Source: Candidatus Multivoradales bacterium | Lineage (GTDB): Bacteria; Acidobacteriota; Thermoanaerobaculia; Multivoradales; JAHEKO01 | DNA length: 64,000 nucleotides | Reading direction: 5' to 3' | NCBI GenBank assembly: GCA_965248055.1 | Contig: CBDFIJ010000004.1 | Span: forward strand, 928,001-992,000 | In this document: positions 15,228 to 52,103 of the stretch, piece after piece | Layout: every line of letters starts with the position of its first letter | Numbering within the stretch: position 1 is the first letter of the stretch | Position numbers and translations under genes: made by a program | The notes under the pieces: model-generated | Database searches by the model: none | What the model was told of the DNA's origin: nothing | The model's input: only the letters and a program-made list of their open reading frames with translations

Positions 15228-16205
15228 CTAACAAGAAAGTGTATGCGTCCATGACATTTGGCACTGATCGGTATGTTCAGCTACGTATTGTAGCGGTGGT
15301 CTTTGTCCGTGGCTCCAGTGGGGCCTTTCGGCGTTAAACCAGAGCATCCAGTCGAAGAGTTTTTGGTTGAAAGCTTGGAGGTCAGTGAAGAGCAAGTCTT
15401 CGTTGTAGTCAACGAATTTCTCTTGGATGGTTCGATTGAATCTCTCGGCTTGGGCGTTCATCTTCGGGCACCTGGGGTAGGTGTACCAGCGTTTGATTCC
15501 AGCCTCAGCAGCTTTCTTGTCGAAGGCTCCTTGAAACTCACTACCGTTGTCTGAGAGCACCGTAGTAACAGCAAATGGCAAGACATCAAGGCTCAGGTCC
15601 AGAAAGCGCGCTGCCGTGCTCGAGGTGTGGGAGTTGGTGGCTATTGCCAGACTCATGCTGCTGGCGGCATCGGTCAGAGTGATCAAGTACCGGCGTTGGC
15701 CATCACAGAATCGCTCGATGGTATCTACTGCCACCCACTGGCCAGGCGAGCATGCCTTGGTTCCTTTAGGTTTGCGAGGCTTACGCTTTCGTTTTGCTTT
15801 CACTCGACCCAGGCGATCAATCCTTTGAGGCACCAAGCGCATCTTGTCGGGAGCATCGCCAATGATGCGGCCGATGGTGCTCACCGAGGGGCAGGTAATT
15901 CCCCTTACTTCACACCAGGGTTTCAACAGCGGATAGATCTTGTCCTTGCCAAGATTGGGCTCTTTGACCCGCAATCGACCGATCTCAGAGACCACCTCAG
16001 CTGGCCACTTGCGCCGTCTTCTTTTCTTCGGAGCTGTTGATTGAGGGTTTAGAGAGGTTAGCTCTCCTTTGCACCTACCAAGACGAGACTTCCAGCGGTA
16101 CAGAGTCCTCCGGCTGACCGAAAATGCATCGATCGCTGCATCGATCCCATGCTCCTGCCAGAATCTCAATGCGCGGATACGTTTCTCAGCGCTATCTTGG
16201 GTCAT
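15228..16205 (-). CDS. IS481-family DDE (rve) transposase; native N-terminus (ATG 17716) separated by the IS256 insertion
   Basis: HTH VSRRTLYRW; DDE core VAVDT..SDNGSEF..AERFNRTIQE. Confidence 0.88.
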   Translation of the reverse strand: MTQDSAEKRIRALRFWQEHGIDAAIDAFSVSRRTLYRWKSRLGRCKGELTSLNPQSTAPKKRRRRKWPAEVVSEIGRLRVKEPNLGKDKIYPLLKPWCEVRGITCPSVSTIGRIIGDAPDKMRLVPQRIDRLGRVKAKRKRKPRKPKGTKACSPGQWVAVDTIERFCDGQRRYLITLTDAASSMSLAIATNSHTSSTAARFLDLSLDVLPFAVTTVLSDNGSEFQGAFDKKAAEAGIKRWYTYPRCPKMNAQAERFNRTIQEKFVDYNEDLLFTDLQAFNQKLFDWMLWFNAERPHWSHGQRPPLQYVAEHTDQCQMSWTHTLSC

Positions 16206-16233
16206 GACCCAAGATACCCCTAGATGACGAAGA

Positions 16234-17664: not shown

Positions 17665-17866
17665 GACGAAGATGTCCCAGGCCTTGGAAACGCCCTCTGA
17701 TCAACCTCATGCTCATCGACACTCCTCATTGAACGAGTGCCATTTGTTTCTGAACTTATGCAGAAAGAAAGCTCCATCCAGGTCAGCCTTGCCAACTAGG
17801 GGGCTGGTGGCTCGACAGCTACGGTCAAGCCGGATCCAGTGGCAGACCTCGGGATCCGGCGGATTT

Positions 17867-45157: not shown

Positions 45158-45925
45158 GTGGCAACTTGGGTTATTGGCGACGTGCATGGCTGCTACAAGC
45201 CGCTCAAGAAACTGGTGCGTCGACTCGAACTGAAACCACACAAAGACACCCTGTGGATGACGGGAGATTTGGTCAACCGGGGCCCCAAGTCGGACCGAGT
45301 ACTACGCTGGTCTATCCAGCGCGAACAGCAGTTAGGGGATCGATTTCAAGTGGTCTTAGGCAACCATGACCTGCACGCACTGGCGGTTCACTACGGGGTC
45401 CGACGCGCCAGACAGGGAGACACCCTAAAGGTGTTGATGAAGGCTGACGACCGCAAATCGCTGATGGATTGGCTTGTCCGTCGACCGTTTCTGGTTCGCC
45501 AGGGAAAACAAGTCCTGGTCCACGCCGGCTTGCTGCCGGAATGGACACCGAAAAAGGCGGAGCGGATCGCCAGCCAACTCAGCGGGCGGTTGATCGCCAA
45601 CCCCAAGGCATTCCTCAAGGGCAATAAGCTCGGGGATCGCCAGAAAGACGCCCTGGCAGCGTTGACCCGCCTGCGGACTCTCAACAAAGCTGATCGACCC
45701 GGCCGCTACAGCGGACCTCTGGACAAGCTACCCAAGGGACTGACGCCATGGTTTCGCCATCCCGAACGAAGAAGCGCCAAAGCTCGTATCTTGTGCGGCC
45801 ACTGGGCGGCCCTCGGGCTGCATCAAGAGGCAAATGTCAGCGCACTCGACACCGGTTGCGTCTGGGGTGGAACCCTGACTGCCATCAGGCTGTCGGACGG
45901 CAAGATCATCCAAGAGCCTCGCTAG
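45158..45925 (+). CDS. apaH: Symmetrical bis(5'-nucleosyl)-tetraphosphatase
   Basis: IGDVHGC, GDLVNRGP, LGNHD, VHAG, GHWAALG, LDTGCVWGG. Confidence 0.93.
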   Translation: MATWVIGDVHGCYKPLKKLVRRLELKPHKDTLWMTGDLVNRGPKSDRVLRWSIQREQQLGDRFQVVLGNHDLHALAVHYGVRRARQGDTLKVLMKADDRKSLMDWLVRRPFLVRQGKQVLVHAGLLPEWTPKKAERIASQLSGRLIANPKAFLKGNKLGDRQKDALAALTRLRTLNKADRPGRYSGPLDKLPKGLTPWFRHPERRSAKARILCGHWAALGLHQEANVSALDTGCVWGGTLTAIRLSDGKIIQEPR

Positions 45926-45993
45926 CAACCGGCGGAGGTTGTCAAGGTATCGGAGGGCTTTCAGTCAGGCTGGCGCATGCTACCGTTTGGGTC

Positions 45994-48813
45994 ATGAAAA
46001 TCCGACTTGCAGTTCTCACCACCGTTCTTGTCTTGGGTTGCCGCACGGGGGCTCCGGTAGCCGACTCATCGGCGGACCACCCGGAGCAATCGCGGTTTGG
46101 CACTTTGCAGTTTGTCGGCGCGATAGCGCCTTCCAGCGCGCTGGAAAACGCCAAGATCGGTGGACTCTCGGGGATTGTGTGGGACGGCCAACGAAGTCTG
46201 CTACTGGCGATCTCCGACGATCCTGGCACCCATGGCGACCCGAGATTTATTGAGTTCGAGCTGCAATTGCCTTCGGACCAACAGGCTGGGTCTTGGACCG
46301 CAAGCCGCGCCGTGACGCTATCCACATCGGACGGCGAGTCTTTTGTCCACGACACGATTGACGCTGAGAGTATCGACTTGTTCGGTGAAGGGTTGGTCAT
46401 TACCTCGGAAGGGGGCAAGCAGGGCCAACCCTTTGTCCGCACCTTCGACCTAGAAGGCAACCAGATCGAGGTTGTATCCATGCCCAGCTACATGCTGTAT
46501 GGCGAAGACGTTGGCGCTAGACCCAATATGGCGATTGAATCCGTTAGCGCGTTGCCCAACGGAACTCTGTTCGCCGGGTTTGAGAACGCGCTAGTTCAAG
46601 ACGGGCCAGCAGCTTCGGTCGATCAACCCAGCCCAGCAAGAATCTTGCGTTGGCAGGGTAAGGGTGCGGCTGAGTTTGTCTATCCGACCGACCCAGTGGT
46701 CGACGCCCCCCTGCAAGAGGGAGGGTTCCACACCAACGGACTGGTGGAGCTACTTGCCCTCGATGACCAACATTTGCTGGCGCTCGAGCGATCCTACACA
46801 GCCGGTTTTCTGGTTCACGTGCGTCTTTATTCGGTCGATCTTTCTCAGGCTACCGACGTCTCCGCCACCAGTTCCATCGGGGACTCGTATCAGCCGGCAG
46901 CAAAAACACTGCTCGCCGACTTAGACGACCTGGGCTTCAACGTTGACAATCTGGAGGGGCTTGCGTGGGGGCCGACGATGGCCGATGGCCGCAAGAGCCT
47001 GCTGATGGTGTCGGATGACAACTTCAGCCCGTTGCAACGCACCCACCTCTTGGTCTTCGCAGTGGGCGAAAAGACACCGACCATCAGCCAAATCCAAAGC
47101 GCAGGTCACAGGTCTCCCTTTGAAGACCAATGGCTGTTTGATGTTGCAGGCACCGTCACCCAGGCAGTCGAAATCGCGGAACGACCCGGGCTGGCGTGGA
47201 TCCAAACCAGCGGAGACCAGGACCTGAATACCTCCGACGGCCTGCGCATCCGCTATGACTGGAGCGACGTTTCGCTGCGTCCCGGCGATTCGATCGTCGT
47301 CAGTGGCCAACTCAGAGAAGAAGGTCGAGAGGGCGAGCTCTCGGTGACCACCTTGACCGCCAACACAGTGATGGTCACTGGAACCGACGACATTCCTGCC
47401 GCAGTCTCTCTGGACCCACAAGTCGAGCTAGCCAGCGCCGCGACTAGACCGTTTGGTGATCTGCCCTTGGACGATGACGCAATGAACACGTTCAGCCCAG
47501 AGCAAAGCTCTGTCGACCTTCTAGAGTCGCTGGAAGGGATGCGGGTCACTATCTCGGAATCCACTTCGGTCTCTGGGACTTCTCGATTCGGAGAAATCGT
47601 ACTGTCGCCCGGTGGGGCGAACGGGGTGCGATCGCAGGCTGGCGGTGTCGTCTTGACCCCAGAATCTTTTAACTCACAGCGACTGGTCGCGGTGAGCGTT
47701 GGTGCGACGCAGTCGCCGACGGTCAAAGTGGGAGATTACTTTGAGCGGCCGATCACCGGCGTGCTGGACTACAGCTTCGCCAACTTCCGGCTCCGAGTCG
47801 AAGACTGGCCCACACCAACATTAAGAGTGCTTTCCGAACCACAACCTCTGTGGGACATCTACGACGACGACTTCACTTTTGCCACCTACAACGTCCTCAA
47901 CCTAGATCCTGAGGACGGCGAACAATTTGACCAAGTCGCTATTTCGATCGTCGATCAACTGTTGTCCCCGGACGTTTTGGCGCTGCAGGAAATCCAAGAC
48001 GACAATGGGGCAAACGACGAAGGAGTCACCTCGGCCAATCTGACCCTGACGATGCTGATTGAGGCGATCCAGATTGCTGGAGGTCCCGACTACGCCTACG
48101 CCCAAATCGACCCGCTGCACAACGCCGAAGGTGGTCAGCCGTTCGGCAATATTCGCAACGTCTATCTCTATCAACCAGATCGGGTTCAGCTGATCAAGGA
48201 CGGTCATGCTGACTCAGATACCTCTATTATGGTGGCACCCGACGGGGGATTCGACCCAAGCCCGGGACGGGTGGCGGTTGAAGATCCGGGATTTGCCGGA
48301 GATCTTAATCGGGGCTGGGAAGCCAATCGCCCCTGTTTGGCGGCAGAATTCTTGGTGTCGGGTGACCGATGGCAGTTCATCAACTGCCACCTCAAGTCGA
48401 AACGCGGTGACGATCGCCTATTTGGCTCCAACCAGCCACCAGTTTTTCATACCGAAGGTCAGCGCAGCGCGCAGACTCAATCACTGGCATCAGTCGCTGA
48501 GGAAGTGCTACTAGCCAACCCGGAGGCCAGACTGGTGGTATTGGGCGACACCAACGAGCACGATTTCCGCGCTCCGATTGCGGAACTCACTTCCGTTGGG
48601 TTGGAAAACCTAGTTGAGCGGATACCGCAGGCCGAGCGCTACAGCTACAACTTCAACGGCAACTCGCAGCTTCTGGATAATGTCCTGGTCAGCCCGGCGG
48701 TCGTCGAATGCTCGCCCGAAGTCGCCATAGCCCACATCAACGTCGACTTTCCCGACGCCGGACGAGCCAGCGACCATGACCCGATCGCAGTGCGTGTTCC
48801 GTCCTGTGATTAG
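45994..48813 (+). CDS. Lipoprotein fusing an esterase-like-activity-of-phytase domain to an ExeM/NucH-type extracellular endonuclease/phosphatase
   Basis: Lipobox VLGC; GGLSG, ISDD, DNLEG, SDDNF; then OB folds and TYNVLN, LQEIQD, HLKSK, GDTN, SDHDP. Confidence 0.88.
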   Translation: MKIRLAVLTTVLVLGCRTGAPVADSSADHPEQSRFGTLQFVGAIAPSSALENAKIGGLSGIVWDGQRSLLLAISDDPGTHGDPRFIEFELQLPSDQQAGSWTASRAVTLSTSDGESFVHDTIDAESIDLFGEGLVITSEGGKQGQPFVRTFDLEGNQIEVVSMPSYMLYGEDVGARPNMAIESVSALPNGTLFAGFENALVQDGPAASVDQPSPARILRWQGKGAAEFVYPTDPVVDAPLQEGGFHTNGLVELLALDDQHLLALERSYTAGFLVHVRLYSVDLSQATDVSATSSIGDSYQPAAKTLLADLDDLGFNVDNLEGLAWGPTMADGRKSLLMVSDDNFSPLQRTHLLVFAVGEKTPTISQIQSAGHRSPFEDQWLFDVAGTVTQAVEIAERPGLAWIQTSGDQDLNTSDGLRIRYDWSDVSLRPGDSIVVSGQLREEGREGELSVTTLTANTVMVTGTDDIPAAVSLDPQVELASAATRPFGDLPLDDDAMNTFSPEQSSVDLLESLEGMRVTISESTSVSGTSRFGEIVLSPGGANGVRSQAGGVVLTPESFNSQRLVAVSVGATQSPTVKVGDYFERPITGVLDYSFANFRLRVEDWPTPTLRVLSEPQPLWDIYDDDFTFATYNVLNLDPEDGEQFDQVAISIVDQLLSPDVLALQEIQDDNGANDEGVTSANLTLTMLIEAIQIAGGPDYAYAQIDPLHNAEGGQPFGNIRNVYLYQPDRVQLIKDGHADSDTSIMVAPDGGFDPSPGRVAVEDPGFAGDLNRGWEANRPCLAAEFLVSGDRWQFINCHLKSKRGDDRLFGSNQPPVFHTEGQRSAQTQSLASVAEEVLLANPEARLVVLGDTNEHDFRAPIAELTSVGLENLVERIPQAERYSYNFNGNSQLLDNVLVSPAVVECSPEVAIAHINVDFPDAGRASDHDPIAVRVPSCD

Positions 48814-49199
48814 GGTTTATCAGGGTCGGGGTGAGGCCACGCCAGCGTACTGAGGCCATAGACGGCGTCCGGCTCGCTCGGAACCAGGATCAAAAAGAGC
48901 CGACACTGCAATTTGCGCTAGAAGGGTTCAACCTCAACATACAAGCTAATTTGCACCTTACCGACGCGTGAAGGAGGCGGCTGATAACCACCTTCGACCG
49001 CGGTAGCTATGTTGGGTTGCTCTGGCCGGGGTGGCACGCCCGCAGTGTCACGCAGAGCTTCACATAAGATCTGCTTGCTTCTTGCCATTGTGTTTCGCCC
49101 TTATTTTTCCCGGGAGTGACAATGCTCCATGCTGCGATGATGGAACATTTAAAGGGAGCCTTGCCGTGGCTGTCAGCGCTGCTCAAGTTGTTTGGGTTG

Positions 49200-50195
49200 C
49201 TAGACGATGAGTGGGAGGTCGTCGGCTAGCGAGCGGCCGTCCTCGTCGGCGATGCGGTAGCAGGGCGGGAACGGCGAGTTTCGAACCTGGTGGGCCTGGC
49301 CGGAGTGGTAGACCTCCGAGAAGGTCTGCTCGCCGACGTTTCCCATCACCGTGTAGTCCTTGGCGATGTCGCACCCCAGGACGTTGAGCTTGGAGTCGAT
49401 CTGTAGGTGCGATAGGCCCGCCGAGCAGGAGGCGCAGTCGAAGCTCGCCGTCTCCTCCATCGAGAATTCCGCCCTTGCGACGGCCTGCCCCCGCGACCTC
49501 AGTTGGACGCGCAAGGACGGCAGGAGCAAGTCCGGTGGAAAGCGCTTCGCGTACTCCCCCAGGTGGGTCCAGAAGTCGTCGGCGTCGTCCTCGTCGAGGA
49601 GCAGCTCCGGGTGAAGCAACGCCTGTTCAGTCCGTTGCACATTCAGAAAATGGAACCGCTTCACCCGCGGATAGAACGCGTCGATCATCAAGTGGACCTT
49701 CGACAGGTTCAGCTTGTGGACGACGCAGGCCAGTTGCAGGTCGATGCTCGATGCGGCAACGCGTTCGATGGTTGCCACGGCGCGGTCCGTCTCGCCCCGC
49801 ACCACGTTGTTGACTTCGGGATCAGGCGAATCGAGCGAGATCTGCAACATGAAATTCGTCAAATCGGTGTTCTCTTCGAGGACGCGGATCATGTCCGGGT
49901 CGATGGCCACGCCGTTCGACAGGACACCGACCCGGATGCCTCGTCGAGTACCGTGGAGGATGAGTTCTAGGATGTCGGGATGGAGGAACGGCTCACCACC
50001 GGCCAGGGTGATGTTGAACACCCCGATGTCCGCCATCTCGTCGATCAGCTCCAGAGCGCGTCGGGTGCCGATGCGGCGCCCTGAAAAGGGCATGGCGTAG
50101 CAGTATTTGCAGGCCAGGTCACAGTAGTCGGTGATCCACATACACACCGTAAACGGTGCGCGCAGGGGTGACCGGGTCTCTGGGACTTTCATCAT
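49200..50195 (-). CDS. Radical SAM peptide maturase (PqqE/MftC-like) with a short SPASM/twitch domain
   Basis: CDLACKYC, AGGEPF, LSNG, QISLDS; C-terminal CASCSAG..GCD..MGNV..PPC; GAGGAG RBS. Confidence 0.92.
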   Translation of the reverse strand: MMKVPETRSPLRAPFTVCMWITDYCDLACKYCYAMPFSGRRIGTRRALELIDEMADIGVFNITLAGGEPFLHPDILELILHGTRRGIRVGVLSNGVAIDPDMIRVLEENTDLTNFMLQISLDSPDPEVNNVVRGETDRAVATIERVAASSIDLQLACVVHKLNLSKVHLMIDAFYPRVKRFHFLNVQRTEQALLHPELLLDEDDADDFWTHLGEYAKRFPPDLLLPSLRVQLRSRGQAVARAEFSMEETASFDCASCSAGLSHLQIDSKLNVLGCDIAKDYTVMGNVGEQTFSEVYHSGQAHQVRNSPFPPCYRIADEDGRSLADDLPLIV

Positions 50196-50227
50196 GCTCT
50201 CCTCAAGCGGCTGGTTGGAAATCGACG

Positions 50228-50488
50228 CTAGGTGCCTTCCGGGCTCAGCGTGGGCAAAATCGACTGCTCGTGCAGGTAGTCCACGAACCTCTTGACGTCC
50301 TTTGCGCGGAAGTCGGTCGACCTGAAGCTGCGAAGATCCTGCTTGCGATCTCGGTACGCAGCCCGCAAGTCATTAAACAGCCGGAAGCCGGATTCGTTTA
50401 CTCTATATACCGTGTCTGACACGGTGTCGTACAGGATGCCTCCGAAGTCCTCTTCCCTGGTTTTGATGTTTTCGAACGGTTCGGCCAA
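50228..50488 (-). CDS. PqqD/MftB-like RiPP recognition element (RRE)
   Basis: REEDFGGILYD..VYRVNESG..DVKRFVDYLHEQSIL; lies between the precursor and the rSAM; TTG start has no obvious RBS. Confidence 0.82.
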   Translation of the reverse strand: MAEPFENIKTREEDFGGILYDTVSDTVYRVNESGFRLFNDLRAAYRDRKQDLRSFRSTDFRAKDVKRFVDYLHEQSILPTLSPEGT

Positions 50489-50509
50489 ACTGGCCGCGAG
50501 GACAGACTC

Positions 50510-50941
50510 TCACGTGCCGGTGTTCTGAGCCCACTGGGCCACCCAGCTGTTGTGCGCCCATTGGGCTCTCCATGGGAGGACGGAGGAGGAGGCCGATGGC
50601 ACCTGGTCGAGGATGTCGGGGTCGAACTCGGCCAGTGGCACCTTCTTGGCGGCGAGTTGCTCGGTTCCCAGCGAGGCCAGGACTTTCTCCGTTGGAAACT
50701 CGCCACCGGTTAGGTGCGGCTGCTTCGTGACCCCCTCCGGTGGGAGGTCCGCGTCGGCGATCCGATTCCGGGAGAACACCTGCGTCTCCACCTCCCGGAA
50801 GGCGCAGACCCTGTTGCTCTTCAAGTCCACCCGTGCCTCCGAGCGTTTCTTGAGAAAAGTGGTATGTCCCTTGTCGACCGGAAATTCCTGGTTGAGGGAG
50901 TACATAAACAACTCGATGTGCGGGGATTCCTGTCCCTTCAT
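50510..50941 (-). CDS. Putative RiPP precursor (143 aa) with a tandem Trp-rich C-terminal core
   Basis: GAGGAGG RBS; leader-like AEFDPDILDQV; core WRAQWAHNS-WVAQWAQNT-GT; directly upstream of the RRE and rSAM. Confidence 0.75.
   Translation of the reverse strand: MKGQESPHIELFMYSLNQEFPVDKGHTTFLKKRSEARVDLKSNRVCAFREVETQVFSRNRIADADLPPEGVTKQPHLTGGEFPTEKVLASLGTEQLAAKKVPLAEFDPDILDQVPSASSSVLPWRAQWAHNSWVAQWAQNTGT
50519..50572 (-). repeat. 2 x 27-nt (9-aa) core repeat W-x-A-Q-W-A-x-N-[S/T]
   Basis: TGGAGAGCCCAATGGGCGCACAACAGC / TGGGTGGCCCAGTGGGCTCAGAACACC. Confidence 0.85.
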
Positions 50942-50984
50942 AGCTCCGCCTCCTCTTGAAAGTGCGTTGTTGGTCACCTAATGG

Positions 50985-51012
50985 AATATCACACAAAAGA
51001 GGCCGATGTCAA
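50985..51012 (-). promoter_or_regulatory. Putative sigma70 promoter of the RiPP-like operon
   Basis: Perfect TTGACA at 51012-51007 and TG-T-GATATT extended -10-like element. Confidence 0.55.
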
Positions 51013-52063
51013 ATTCCTGTATGCGTCCATGACATTTGGCACTGATCGGTATGTTCAGCTACGTATTGTAACGGTGGTCTTTGTCCGTGGCTCCAGTGGG
51101 GCCTTTCGGCGTTAAACCAGAGCATCCAGTCGAAGAGTTTTTGGTTGAAAGCTTGGAGGTCAGTGAAGAGCAAGTCTTCGTTGTAGTCAACGAATTTCTC
51201 TTGGATGGTTCGATTGAATCTCTCGGCTTGGGCGTTCATCTTCGGGCATCTGGGGTAGGTGTACCAGCGTTTGATTCCAGCCTCAGCAGCTTTCTTGTCG
51301 AAGGCTCCTTGAAACTCACTACCGTTGTCTGAGAGCACGGTAGTAACAGCAAATGGCAAGACATCAAGGCTCAGGTCCAGAAAGCGCGCTGCCGTGCTCG
51401 AGGTGTGGGAGTTGGTGGCTATTGCAGCAGACTCATGCTGCTGGCGGCATCGGTCAGAGTGATCAAGTACCGGCGTTGGCCATCACAGAATCGCTCGATG
51501 GTATCTACTGCCACCCACTGGCTAGGCGAGCATGCCTTGGTTCCTTTAGGTTTGCGAGGCTTACGCTTTCGTTTTGCTTTCACTCGACCCAGGCGATCAA
51601 TCCTTTGAGGCACCAAGCGCATCTTGTCGGGAGCATCGCCAATGATGCGGCCGATGGTGCTCACCGAGGGGCAGGTAATTCCCCTTACTTCACACCAGGG
51701 TTTCAACAGCGGATAGATCTTGTCCTTGCCAAGATTGGGCTCTTTGACTCGCAATCGACCGATCTCAGAGACCACCTCAGCTGGCCACTTGCGCCGTCTT
51801 CTTTTCTTCGGAGCTGTTGATTGAGGGTTTAGAGAGGTTAGCTCTCCTTTGCACCTACCAAGACAAGACTTCCAGCGGTACAGAGTCCTCCGGCTCACCG
51901 AAAATGCATCGATCGCTGCATCGATCCCATGCTCCTGCCAGAATCTCAATGCTCGGATACGTTTCTCAGCGCTATCTTGGGTCATGACCCAAGATACCCC
52001 TAGATGACGAAGATGTCCCAGGCCTTGGAAACGCCCTCTGATCAACCTCATGCTCAGCGACAC
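51009..52063 (-). pseudogene. Frameshifted IS481 transposase
   Basis: 2-bp insertion near 51425 (ATTGCAGCAGAC versus ATTGCCAGAC in copy 1) splits the ORF into 51419..52063 and 51009..51359. Confidence 0.88.
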
Positions 52064-52103
52064 TCCTCATTGAACGAGTGCCATTTGTTTCTGAACTTAT
52101 GCA
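51018..52103 (-). mobile_element. IS481-family insertion sequence, copy 2 (1086 bp)
   Basis: Same ends as copy 1; ATTCC direct repeats at 51013-51017 and 52104-52108. Confidence 0.93.

Follow-up and report, generated by a model that had tools for sequence, protein, structure and literature searches.

Does a compact cassette in an acidobacterial genome direct the radical S-adenosylmethionine (SAM) maturation of a Trp-rich peptide, and do its precursor and recognition domain form one gene or two? These questions are raised by a locus of Candidatus Multivoradales bacterium located in a stretch of 64,000 nucleotides (contig CBDFIJ010000004.1, positions 928,001 to 992,000 of the forward strand), hereafter called the window and numbered from its first letter. 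A preliminary description of this DNA had proposed a three-gene system for a peptide that is synthesized by the ribosome and modified posttranslationally (RiPP), with separate genes for a precursor, a RiPP recognition element (RRE) and a radical SAM enzyme. The best overall explanation, favored here with moderate confidence, is that the cassette belongs to an uncurated, horizontally mobile, two-gene family of radical SAM peptide maturation, in which the enzyme matures a Trp core, and that an in-frame UGA of the first gene is read as selenocysteine (Sec) in this genome.

The cassette and its family

Re-reading of the sequence located the three co-oriented open reading frames (ORFs A, B, and C), the GAGGAGG ribosome-binding site, and the TTGACA site of the preliminary description, all on the minus strand. 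ORF A (50941..50513) encodes a precursor-like protein of 143 amino acids counted from the ATG, has the C terminus LPWRAQWAHNSWVAQWAQNTGT (also written WRAQWAHNSWVAQWAQNTGT), and is followed by the stop codon TGA (50512..50510). ORF B (50488..50231) encodes a PqqD-like protein of 86 amino acids between a TTG start codon and a TAG stop codon. ORF C (50195..49203) encodes a radical SAM enzyme of 331 amino acids; its gene, assigned by hidden Markov model (HMM) and motif, spans 49200..50195 and has its own GAGGAG ribosome-binding site at 50204..50199. The GAGGAGG site (50949..50955) is positioned 7 nt 5′ of the precursor ATG. Farther upstream, a promoter-like site composed of TTGACA, 16 nt, and TG-GATATT (50985..51012; 10 of 12 matches) lies 4 nt from the end of a multicopy insertion sequence (IS). 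One sigma-70-like site was observed compared to 0.5 ± 0.8 in shuffled sequences, so this site alone is a weak signal. The earlier reading of the products as a Trp-motif protein, a PqqD-like protein, and a CxxxCxxC radical SAM enzyme with a Cys-bearing C-terminal domain was confirmed.

The ORF C product matched the radical SAM model PF04055 with an E value of 3.2e-21 (76.7 bits; cutoff, 29.5 bits), which places it in the radical SAM superfamily. It begins directly with the SAM domain, without an N-terminal RRE, and carries the CxxxCxxC motif at residues 25 to 32 (50123..50100). The SPASM model PF13186 was also matched (25.1 bits; cutoff, 21.5 bits), with only four C-terminal cysteines conserved. 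Across an alignment of 32 sequences, C25, C29, C32, C257, C275, and C312 never vary, and conservation of C254 reaches at least 90%. Seven cysteines characterize a full SPASM domain; the four C-terminal cysteines of this enzyme (C254, C257, C275, and C312) suggest one auxiliary cluster in a twitch-like domain.

In line with the novelty that the preliminary description had proposed, the enzyme reaches no equivalog cutoff of NCBIfam. The best model was MftC (82.5 bits; cutoff, 265), and the scores for the PqqE equivalog (67.3 bits; cutoff, 381.35) and SbtM (TIGR04082; 61.6 bits; cutoff, 350) were also below threshold. The models of known Trp or cyclophane maturases (WgkB, DynA, GrrM/OscB, FxsB, YhhB, and AmcB) likewise gave no match at cutoff: WgkB scored 65.7 bits against 650, and the other five are absent from the best 25 of 71 NCBIfam matches to the enzyme. 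Sactipeptide maturases were found together with SbtM among its weak matches. A search of the PDB identified PqqE (6c8v) as the closest solved structure by sequence (E value, 5e-10). At an E value of ≤1e-10, 154 homologs were retrieved, with identities of 42 to 92%. According to the names given by their sources, they come from Bacillota, Cyanobacteria, Alphaproteobacteria, and Acidobacteriota, and include sequences from Brevibacillus, Bacillus, Bradyrhizobium, Salinarimonas, and a Chroococcopsis plasmid. Their annotations are all generic or, for one public homolog, "putative MftC."

No Pfam or NCBIfam model matched ORF A. An exhaustive HMMER search with ORF A as the query revealed 16 representatives at an E value of ≤1e-3, and the leader is common to all of them. 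Most have 160 to 215 amino acids, because the RRE follows the Trp core in the same chain. The leader motif of the family is P.IELYMYS[LM]NQEFP.GKGH.TFLK (also P.IELYMYSLNQEFP.GKGH.TFLK), within which L11, Q18, E19, F20, and H26 are invariant. In the window, the family alignment places it at residues 7 to 32 (50846..50923, minus strand) in the form P.IELFMYSLNQEFP.DKGH.TFLKK.

To survey the gene arrangement, 34 loci were chosen by similarity of the radical SAM enzyme alone (2 reference genomes and 32 metagenomes). The leader HMM matched the ORF directly upstream of the radical SAM gene in 22 of them, namely, in all 22 with at least 749 nt of upstream sequence, so the homologs do not lack the Trp-motif ORF on which the preliminary description had relied. 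The 12 loci without a leader match all have at most 388 nt of upstream sequence. The RRE HMM matched 27 of the 34 loci; among the other seven, five have less than 50 nt upstream, and two (L033 and L034) contain distant radical SAM enzymes with 33% identity. The arrangement goes beyond chance, because it was found again in independent loci. Among the leader ORFs, 19 of 23 are fused to the RRE and 4 are "split." The three-gene layout resembling mftABC that had been proposed is therefore a lineage-specific appearance only, the usual form being two genes with precursor and RRE fused. One locus (L019) carries two tandem fused precursor-RRE genes (205 to 693 and 1554 to 2048) ahead of a single radical SAM gene.

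The core of the window occupies residues 124 to 140 (50522..50572, minus strand) and reads WRAQ-WAHN-S-WVAQ-WAQN in the alignment, i.e., four units WRAQ, WAHN, WVAQ, and WAQN. A survey of 66 sequences yielded 43 distinct core strings, of which 39 match W-x3-W-x4-W. Within these 39 pattern-selected cores, Q is present at +3 in 34, N at +7 in 37, N, Q, or D at +12 in 39, and W, H, or Y at +13 in 37. In alignment A2, whose sequences were not selected by the pattern, conservation of W124, W128, and W133 reaches at least 90%. For the family as a whole, the motif reads W-x-[AV]-Q-W-x-x-N-x-W-[VI]-x-[NQD]-[WHY], with three W-x-x-(Q/N/D) units. Thus, the Trp motif announced by the preliminary description is conserved upstream of homologs, but its exact tandem form, W-x-A-Q-W-A-x-N, is confined to the subclade of the window. 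Exceptions are three loci (L027, L028, and L030) with Ala instead of the first Asn and other Trp-rich cores in L026 and in the first tandem copy of L019.

The PqqD-like domain (50231..50488, minus strand) was recognized by profile comparison. With single-sequence HMM searches, ORF B scored below threshold against PF05402 (12.7 bits; cutoff, 23.4) and MftB (15.2 bits; cutoff, 33; E value, 0.02), and PF05402 matched 6 of 21 RRE members at an E value of ≤1 (best, 0.056). An alignment of the 21 homologous domains was then compared as a profile with a profile of 25 PqqD domains from genomes of the same phylum. Comparison by hhalign gave a probability of 81% and an E value of 1.2e-5 over 65 of about 85 columns, and the controls (1 reversed and 10 column-shuffled profiles) gave at most 1.9%. 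ORF B is accepted by homology as a PqqD-like RRE because this match stands and the controls fail. Two results speak against the assignment: every single-sequence HMM remained below threshold for the domain, and the RRE alignment, used as a profile against the PDB, retrieved no credible match.

One in-frame TGA between core and recognition domain

Analysis of the boundary between ORFs A and B revealed that they share one frame and are split by one TGA plus 7 codons in the window and in loci L002, L003, L004, and L007. The maturation cassette of precursor, RRE, and radical SAM enzyme described earlier is thus supported, except that its first two parts are separated by a single in-frame TGA and do not lie in separate frames. 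Read-through would join them to one gene 1 (50231..50941, minus strand) for a protein of 237 amino acids with leader, linker, Trp core, UGA at residue 144, and PqqD-like RRE; database searching matched residues 1 to 237 as one hit with "1 TGA" inside. Codon 144 (50510..50512, minus strand), the candidate Sec codon, aligns with a Cys of the fused members L006, L018, P0122, and P0151, which is the UGA/Cys correspondence expected of a selenoprotein gene. L018 and L004 have 75% nucleotide identity over 300 nt and differ at this codon, with TGC (Cys) in the former and TGA in the latter. The 7 codons that follow the TGA are conserved as E[SP][VI]L[AT]AS and are similar to EP[IF][FY]AAA, the linker in the fused L006 and P0122. 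A sequencing error was rejected as the origin of the TGA, since five independent loci carry it, and an alternative genetic code was rejected, since TGA also terminates fused ORFs.

The TGA is followed, 13 nt 3′, by the hairpin CGGCC-AGUUU-GGCCG (50482..50496, minus strand), which resembles a selenocysteine insertion sequence (SECIS) and has G23 and U24 in its apical loop. With the U of UGA numbered 1, its sequence is C20 C21 [A22 G23 U24 U25 U26] G27 G28, the same geometry as in fdhA of this genome, C20 C21 [G22 G23 U24 C25 U26] G27 G28. In Escherichia coli, G23 and U24 are the positions contacted by SelB. In the selD hairpin, the loop is GGUC and lies one position earlier. Both selD (C4:1264931-1265854) and fdhA (C4:1910223-1912253), the reference selenoprotein genes of the genome, contain one in-frame TGA followed by a hairpin with a GGUC-type apical loop. 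A post hoc rule, written with the candidate known (at least 5 Watson-Crick pairs closing a loop of 4 to 5 nt, with GU at 23/24), is satisfied by 45 of 105,454 genomic TGA sites. The genome encodes tRNA-Sec (anticodon tca), selA (450 bits; cutoff, 268), selB (340.9 bits; cutoff, 242), and selD (348 bits; cutoff, 125), and selB was also found in the genomes of L002 and L003. The Sec machinery is therefore present, which is a necessary condition only.

Decoding of the UGA of gene 1 as Sec by read-through, with a 237-residue product, is considered moderately probable, and a number of observations weigh against it. The hairpin is short and has little stability (−12 to −17 kcal/mol with 48 to 60 nt folded, versus −23 kcal/mol for selD), a bulged U is absent, and Rfam returned two chance-level matches only for 50200 to 50700. 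The 5-bp rule is not satisfied even by the SECIS of fdhA. The hairpin is kept, with one G·U pair, in the Cys form L018 and is thus not UGA specific; it is missing from the Cys form L006. Because selB is so common in the phylum (159 of 201 sampled genomes, three unpublished ones included), its presence in the hosts says little and does not discriminate. The five UGA loci are 75 to 92% alike and may represent one ancestral event. Most family members have neither Cys nor Sec in the column of codon 144; therefore, this residue is not needed for the core chemistry of the family.

These points bear on the alternative that the cassette consists of three separate genes, in which the TGA would be a true stop codon that split an ancestral fusion, translation of ORF B would begin at the TTG at 50488 through coupling or reinitiation, and the RRE would act in trans, as MftB and PqqD do. 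Discrete RREs are common among known systems, the TTG is found 24 nt 3′ of the TGA in four of the five TGA loci, and the hairpin is weak, lacks the long strong stem of the selD SECIS, and persists in the Cys form L018. The shared frame could descend from one recent nonsense event, so that the in-frame continuity could be a residue of a recent split. Public gene callers treat "A-only" proteins as complete. The start codon of ORF B argues in the other direction: in L004 the TTG is replaced by TGG, and no ATG, GTG, or TTG precedes the conserved REEDFGG beta-strand; in the window, the TTG (50488..50486) lies inside the hairpin loop and is not preceded by a Shine-Dalgarno sequence, whereas ORF A and the radical SAM gene both have GAGGAG(G). 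In addition, the boundary stop is TGA in all five split loci and always aligned with the Cys, and the 21-nt spacer is free of indels across the five loci and still reads like the linker of the fused proteins. Read-through is also favored by 17 further protein clusters that, like ORF A of the window, stop exactly one residue short of the Cys column (...NTGT, ...NAGT, and ...YTNT). On balance, a true stop with independent initiation is regarded as unlikely, though it takes up most of what Sec read-through leaves, and other outcomes at the boundary share the rest.

A further idea, which is speculative and to which little probability is given, is that the UGA is a programmed switch: termination would free a leader-core substrate, and Sec insertion would yield a scaffold bearing the RRE. 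The Sec beside the Trp core might then become part of the product, which would be a cross-linked peptide containing selenium or a redox center derived from Trp. If such a switch existed, the ratio of substrate to chaperone would track the selenium supply.

In two family members (proteins P0155 and P0123, from public contigs of 19 kb and 44 kb), the region of the Trp core is read in another frame that bypasses the TGA, and the ORF of P0155 afterwards returns to the RRE frame. These frame changes may be assembly indel errors or real frameshifted variants.

Putative maturation pathway and related systems

In the proposed pathway, gene 1 would encode one polypeptide with a leader of about 45 amino acids, a variable linker, a short Trp core, and a C-terminal PqqD-like RRE, and gene 2 would encode the radical SAM enzyme, which lacks an RRE and has a single auxiliary-cluster (twitch-like) domain. 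SelB and Sec-tRNA, aided by the hairpin, would decode the UGA to give the selenoprotein leader-core-Sec-RRE of 237 amino acids, and termination at the UGA would give a free leader-core peptide of 143 amino acids. The RRE is predicted to bind the leader, either within the same fused chain (in cis) or in trans, to dock on the enzyme, and to present the core loop. The enzyme would then cleave SAM, abstract a hydrogen atom in the core, and form cross-links at the W-x-x-(Q/N) units; the likeliest chemistry would be C-C bonds from the indole to a side chain, joining Trp to the Q or N at i+3. This cross-linking is the weakest step and is put forward tentatively, with a probability somewhat short of even. 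Its model is the formation of Trp-Asn, Trp-Lys, and Trp-Arg C-C links by DynA, DarE, and WprB, which the available text of PMC10288494 and PMC11851443 presents as radical SAM chemistry. The product might be released by a generic protease, and relatives may add tailoring enzymes. A core enclosed by a leader and a folded domain is atypical of released peptides, and no conserved protease or exporter was found beside the cassette; both facts count against the proposal.

Beyond gene 1 and the radical SAM gene, no neighbor is conserved across the family. Genes of the PF04820 (Trp-halogenase) family adjoin the cassette in L009 (2102 to 3661) and L010 (883 to 2454). They weakly match the NCBIfam model of QhpG (33 to 37 bits; cutoff, 240), a flavin-dependent monooxygenase according to the library, and also weakly CmlS; on sequence grounds, they could be halogenases or Trp hydroxylases. 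An M48 peptidase is encoded in L017, a HemN-like radical SAM protein in L019, and PapB-like SPASM peptide maturases in L020 and L028. These tailoring-type neighbors support the reading of a Trp-centered peptide natural product without proving it. In three related loci, L022 (4075 to 6747), L024 (1090 to 3012), and L025 (4072 to 5262), an S-adenosylhomocysteine hydrolase is encoded directly downstream of the radical SAM enzyme. A SAM synthetase is also encoded downstream of the enzyme in L022 and is listed among the neighbors of L022, L024, and L025. Such neighbors may have come together by chance in a single lineage or may be connected with the supply of SAM.

The product might instead be an intracellular redox cofactor, comparable to pyrroloquinoline quinone (PQQ), mycofactocin, or the Cys-tryptophylquinone of QhpC, made from the Trp motif and, in this lineage, the Cys or Sec. 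The nearest HMMs of the radical SAM enzyme (MftC and PqqE, among others), the PqqD-like RRE, the minimal two-gene cassette, and the redox-active Cys or Sec after the core in this subclade fit such a product, as do the weak QhpG matches in L009 and L010 and the lack of a conserved exporter, immunity gene, or dedicated protease. All relevant HMM scores are far under cutoff, however, no conserved dehydrogenase partner is encoded nearby, and the Cys or Sec is missing from most of the family. The SPASM maturases, the HemN-like protein, and the halogenase-family genes of relatives resemble natural-product tailoring, and the patchy, IS-linked, GC-deviant distribution described below suits an accessory trait, so that a cofactor appears quite improbable. 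About as improbable, and if anything slightly more so, is a target other than Trp, which would involve a thioether or selenoether of the Cys or Sec, an SbtM-like thio(seleno)oxazole, epimerization, or chemistry at Gln or Asn. Twitch and SPASM enzymes catalyze many reactions, SbtM and sactipeptide maturases recur among the weak matches, and SbtA/SbtM offers the precedent of a Sec-bearing radical SAM substrate, predicted in the available text of PMC9204691. Against a target of this kind stand the confinement of the Cys or Sec to one subclade, the conservation of three Trp and the Q/N positions throughout the family, and the SbtM and sactipeptide scores far below cutoff.

Comparison with characterized pathways indicates that the system would work like a PqqD/RRE-dependent radical SAM RiPP pathway. 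It appears to lie outside the mycofactocin, PQQ, WgkB, SbtM, and cyclophane maturase families, because all their models score far below cutoff. The closest resemblance in gene order is to mycofactocin (MftA/MftB/MftC), which shares the short precursor, the PqqD-like chaperone, and the radical SAM/SPASM-type maturase, and whose MftC is the best-scoring NCBIfam model for this enzyme. Membership in the mycofactocin family was rejected on the MftC and MftB scores given above and the absence of a precursor-model match to ORF A. No neighbors resembling mftD, mftE, or mftF are present, most family members have precursor and RRE in one protein, and the core is an internal Trp motif, whereas the mycofactocin core is a C-terminal Val-Tyr. 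PQQ biosynthesis (PqqA/PqqD/PqqE) likewise combines a PqqD-fold recognition domain with a radical SAM enzyme, and in it the side chains of a small peptide are cross-linked. It differs in its core and its full SPASM domain, compared to one auxiliary-cluster motif in this enzyme, and no pqqB or pqqC gene is present here. With streptide, darobactin/dynobactin, the triceptides, tryglysin/WgkB, and WprB, the system shares a Trp-containing core and a SPASM or twitch radical SAM enzyme. Unlike in those systems, a four-residue unit, W-x-x-Q/N, is repeated three to four times, the conserved leader of 45 amino acids is new, and the RRE is fused to the substrate and not to the enzyme. In SbtA/SbtM, Sec is situated within the modified motif, in contrast to the Sec or Cys that follows the core here and is missing from most of the family. 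QhpC/QhpD/QhpG resembles the family in that a radical SAM maturase and a flavin enzyme accompany a small polypeptide containing Trp and Cys. QhpG acts on Trp. The QhpG scores of the L009 and L010 neighbors are far under cutoff, and dehydrogenase subunits are not found nearby.

Judged by these sequence comparisons, the family is real, extends across several phyla, has no curated model, and is unusual in architecture. A literature search found no description of the family or its leader motif, although the compendium of PMC10288494 and the RRE-Finder data sets may list it without describing it; in the available text of the publications searched, no fusion of a substrate to an RRE was described. 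Such a fusion would alter precursor searches, as mining tools seek short ORFs beside RRE proteins and not inside them. Should the UGA be decoded as Sec, radical SAM substrates that bear selenium would have a second predicted lineage, and gene callers would systematically cut one gene into a "precursor" and an "RRE." Trp-cross-linked radical SAM RiPPs include antibiotics against Gram-negative bacteria. The new leader, the four-residue W-x-x-Q/N repeat, and the tiny two-gene cassette constitute a testable source of new macrocycle chemistry, and the distinct core variants collected from nature number more than 40.

Distribution, mobility, and surroundings

The distribution of the cassette was analyzed in genome samples. 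The radical SAM enzyme was not found in 40 relatives at an E value of ≤1e-20. Among 401 sampled genomes of the phylum, the read-through protein was detected in the source genome (G000) only, as one match with "1 TGA" inside. In a sample of 401 genomes around that of L002 (G041), which is presumably from the same phylum, it was likewise found only in G041. A tblastn search of plasmids with the enzyme gave zero matches at an E value of ≤1e-40. The GC content of the cassette and its flanks is 0.61 versus 0.58 in the window and 0.63 versus 0.69 (L002) and 0.70 (L003), and the flanks are unlike each other in all three genomes compared. The cassette behaves like an accessory unit gained by horizontal transfer.

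Its upstream border is marked by the IS element (51016..52103, minus strand; 1.09 kb), which lies outside the cassette, abuts the promoter-like site, and was delimited by domain matches, depth, and copy search. It contains two ORFs, for a helix-turn-helix transposase N terminus and an rve_3 integrase core. Eight further genomic copies of at least 996 nt are 88 to 99% identical, and the element also occurs at about 15240 to 16233 and 17665 to 17762 of the window (C4:943240-944233 and C4:945665-945762). Contigs from four sequencing runs of one sample, which may be the source itself, match 49150 to 51045 without differences and break at the IS, where the contig depth rises from about 42 to 64 to about 790 to 1160 at 51006 to 51050, i.e., about 18-fold. 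Three contigs of the same genome (C1 to C3; 14.8, 16.7, and 28.4 kb) have a GC content of 39 to 43%, compared to 57% for the chromosome, and may derive from plasmids or phage or be foreign DNA included in the assembly.

On the other side of the cassette, a convergent ORF of 1,021 amino acids (45748 to 48813, plus strand) encodes a phytase-like esterase domain and an endonuclease/exonuclease/phosphatase domain; it ends 387 nt from the radical SAM stop codon and is not kept beside the cassette elsewhere. Outside the window, the genome contains a second radical SAM/PqqD locus (C4:3099448-3103010), in which two weaker relatives of the enzyme (21 to 25% identity) surround a PF05402 match at 3101851 to 3102054 (E value, 8.5e-14). 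Judged by this gene content, it is probably another RiPP-type cluster.

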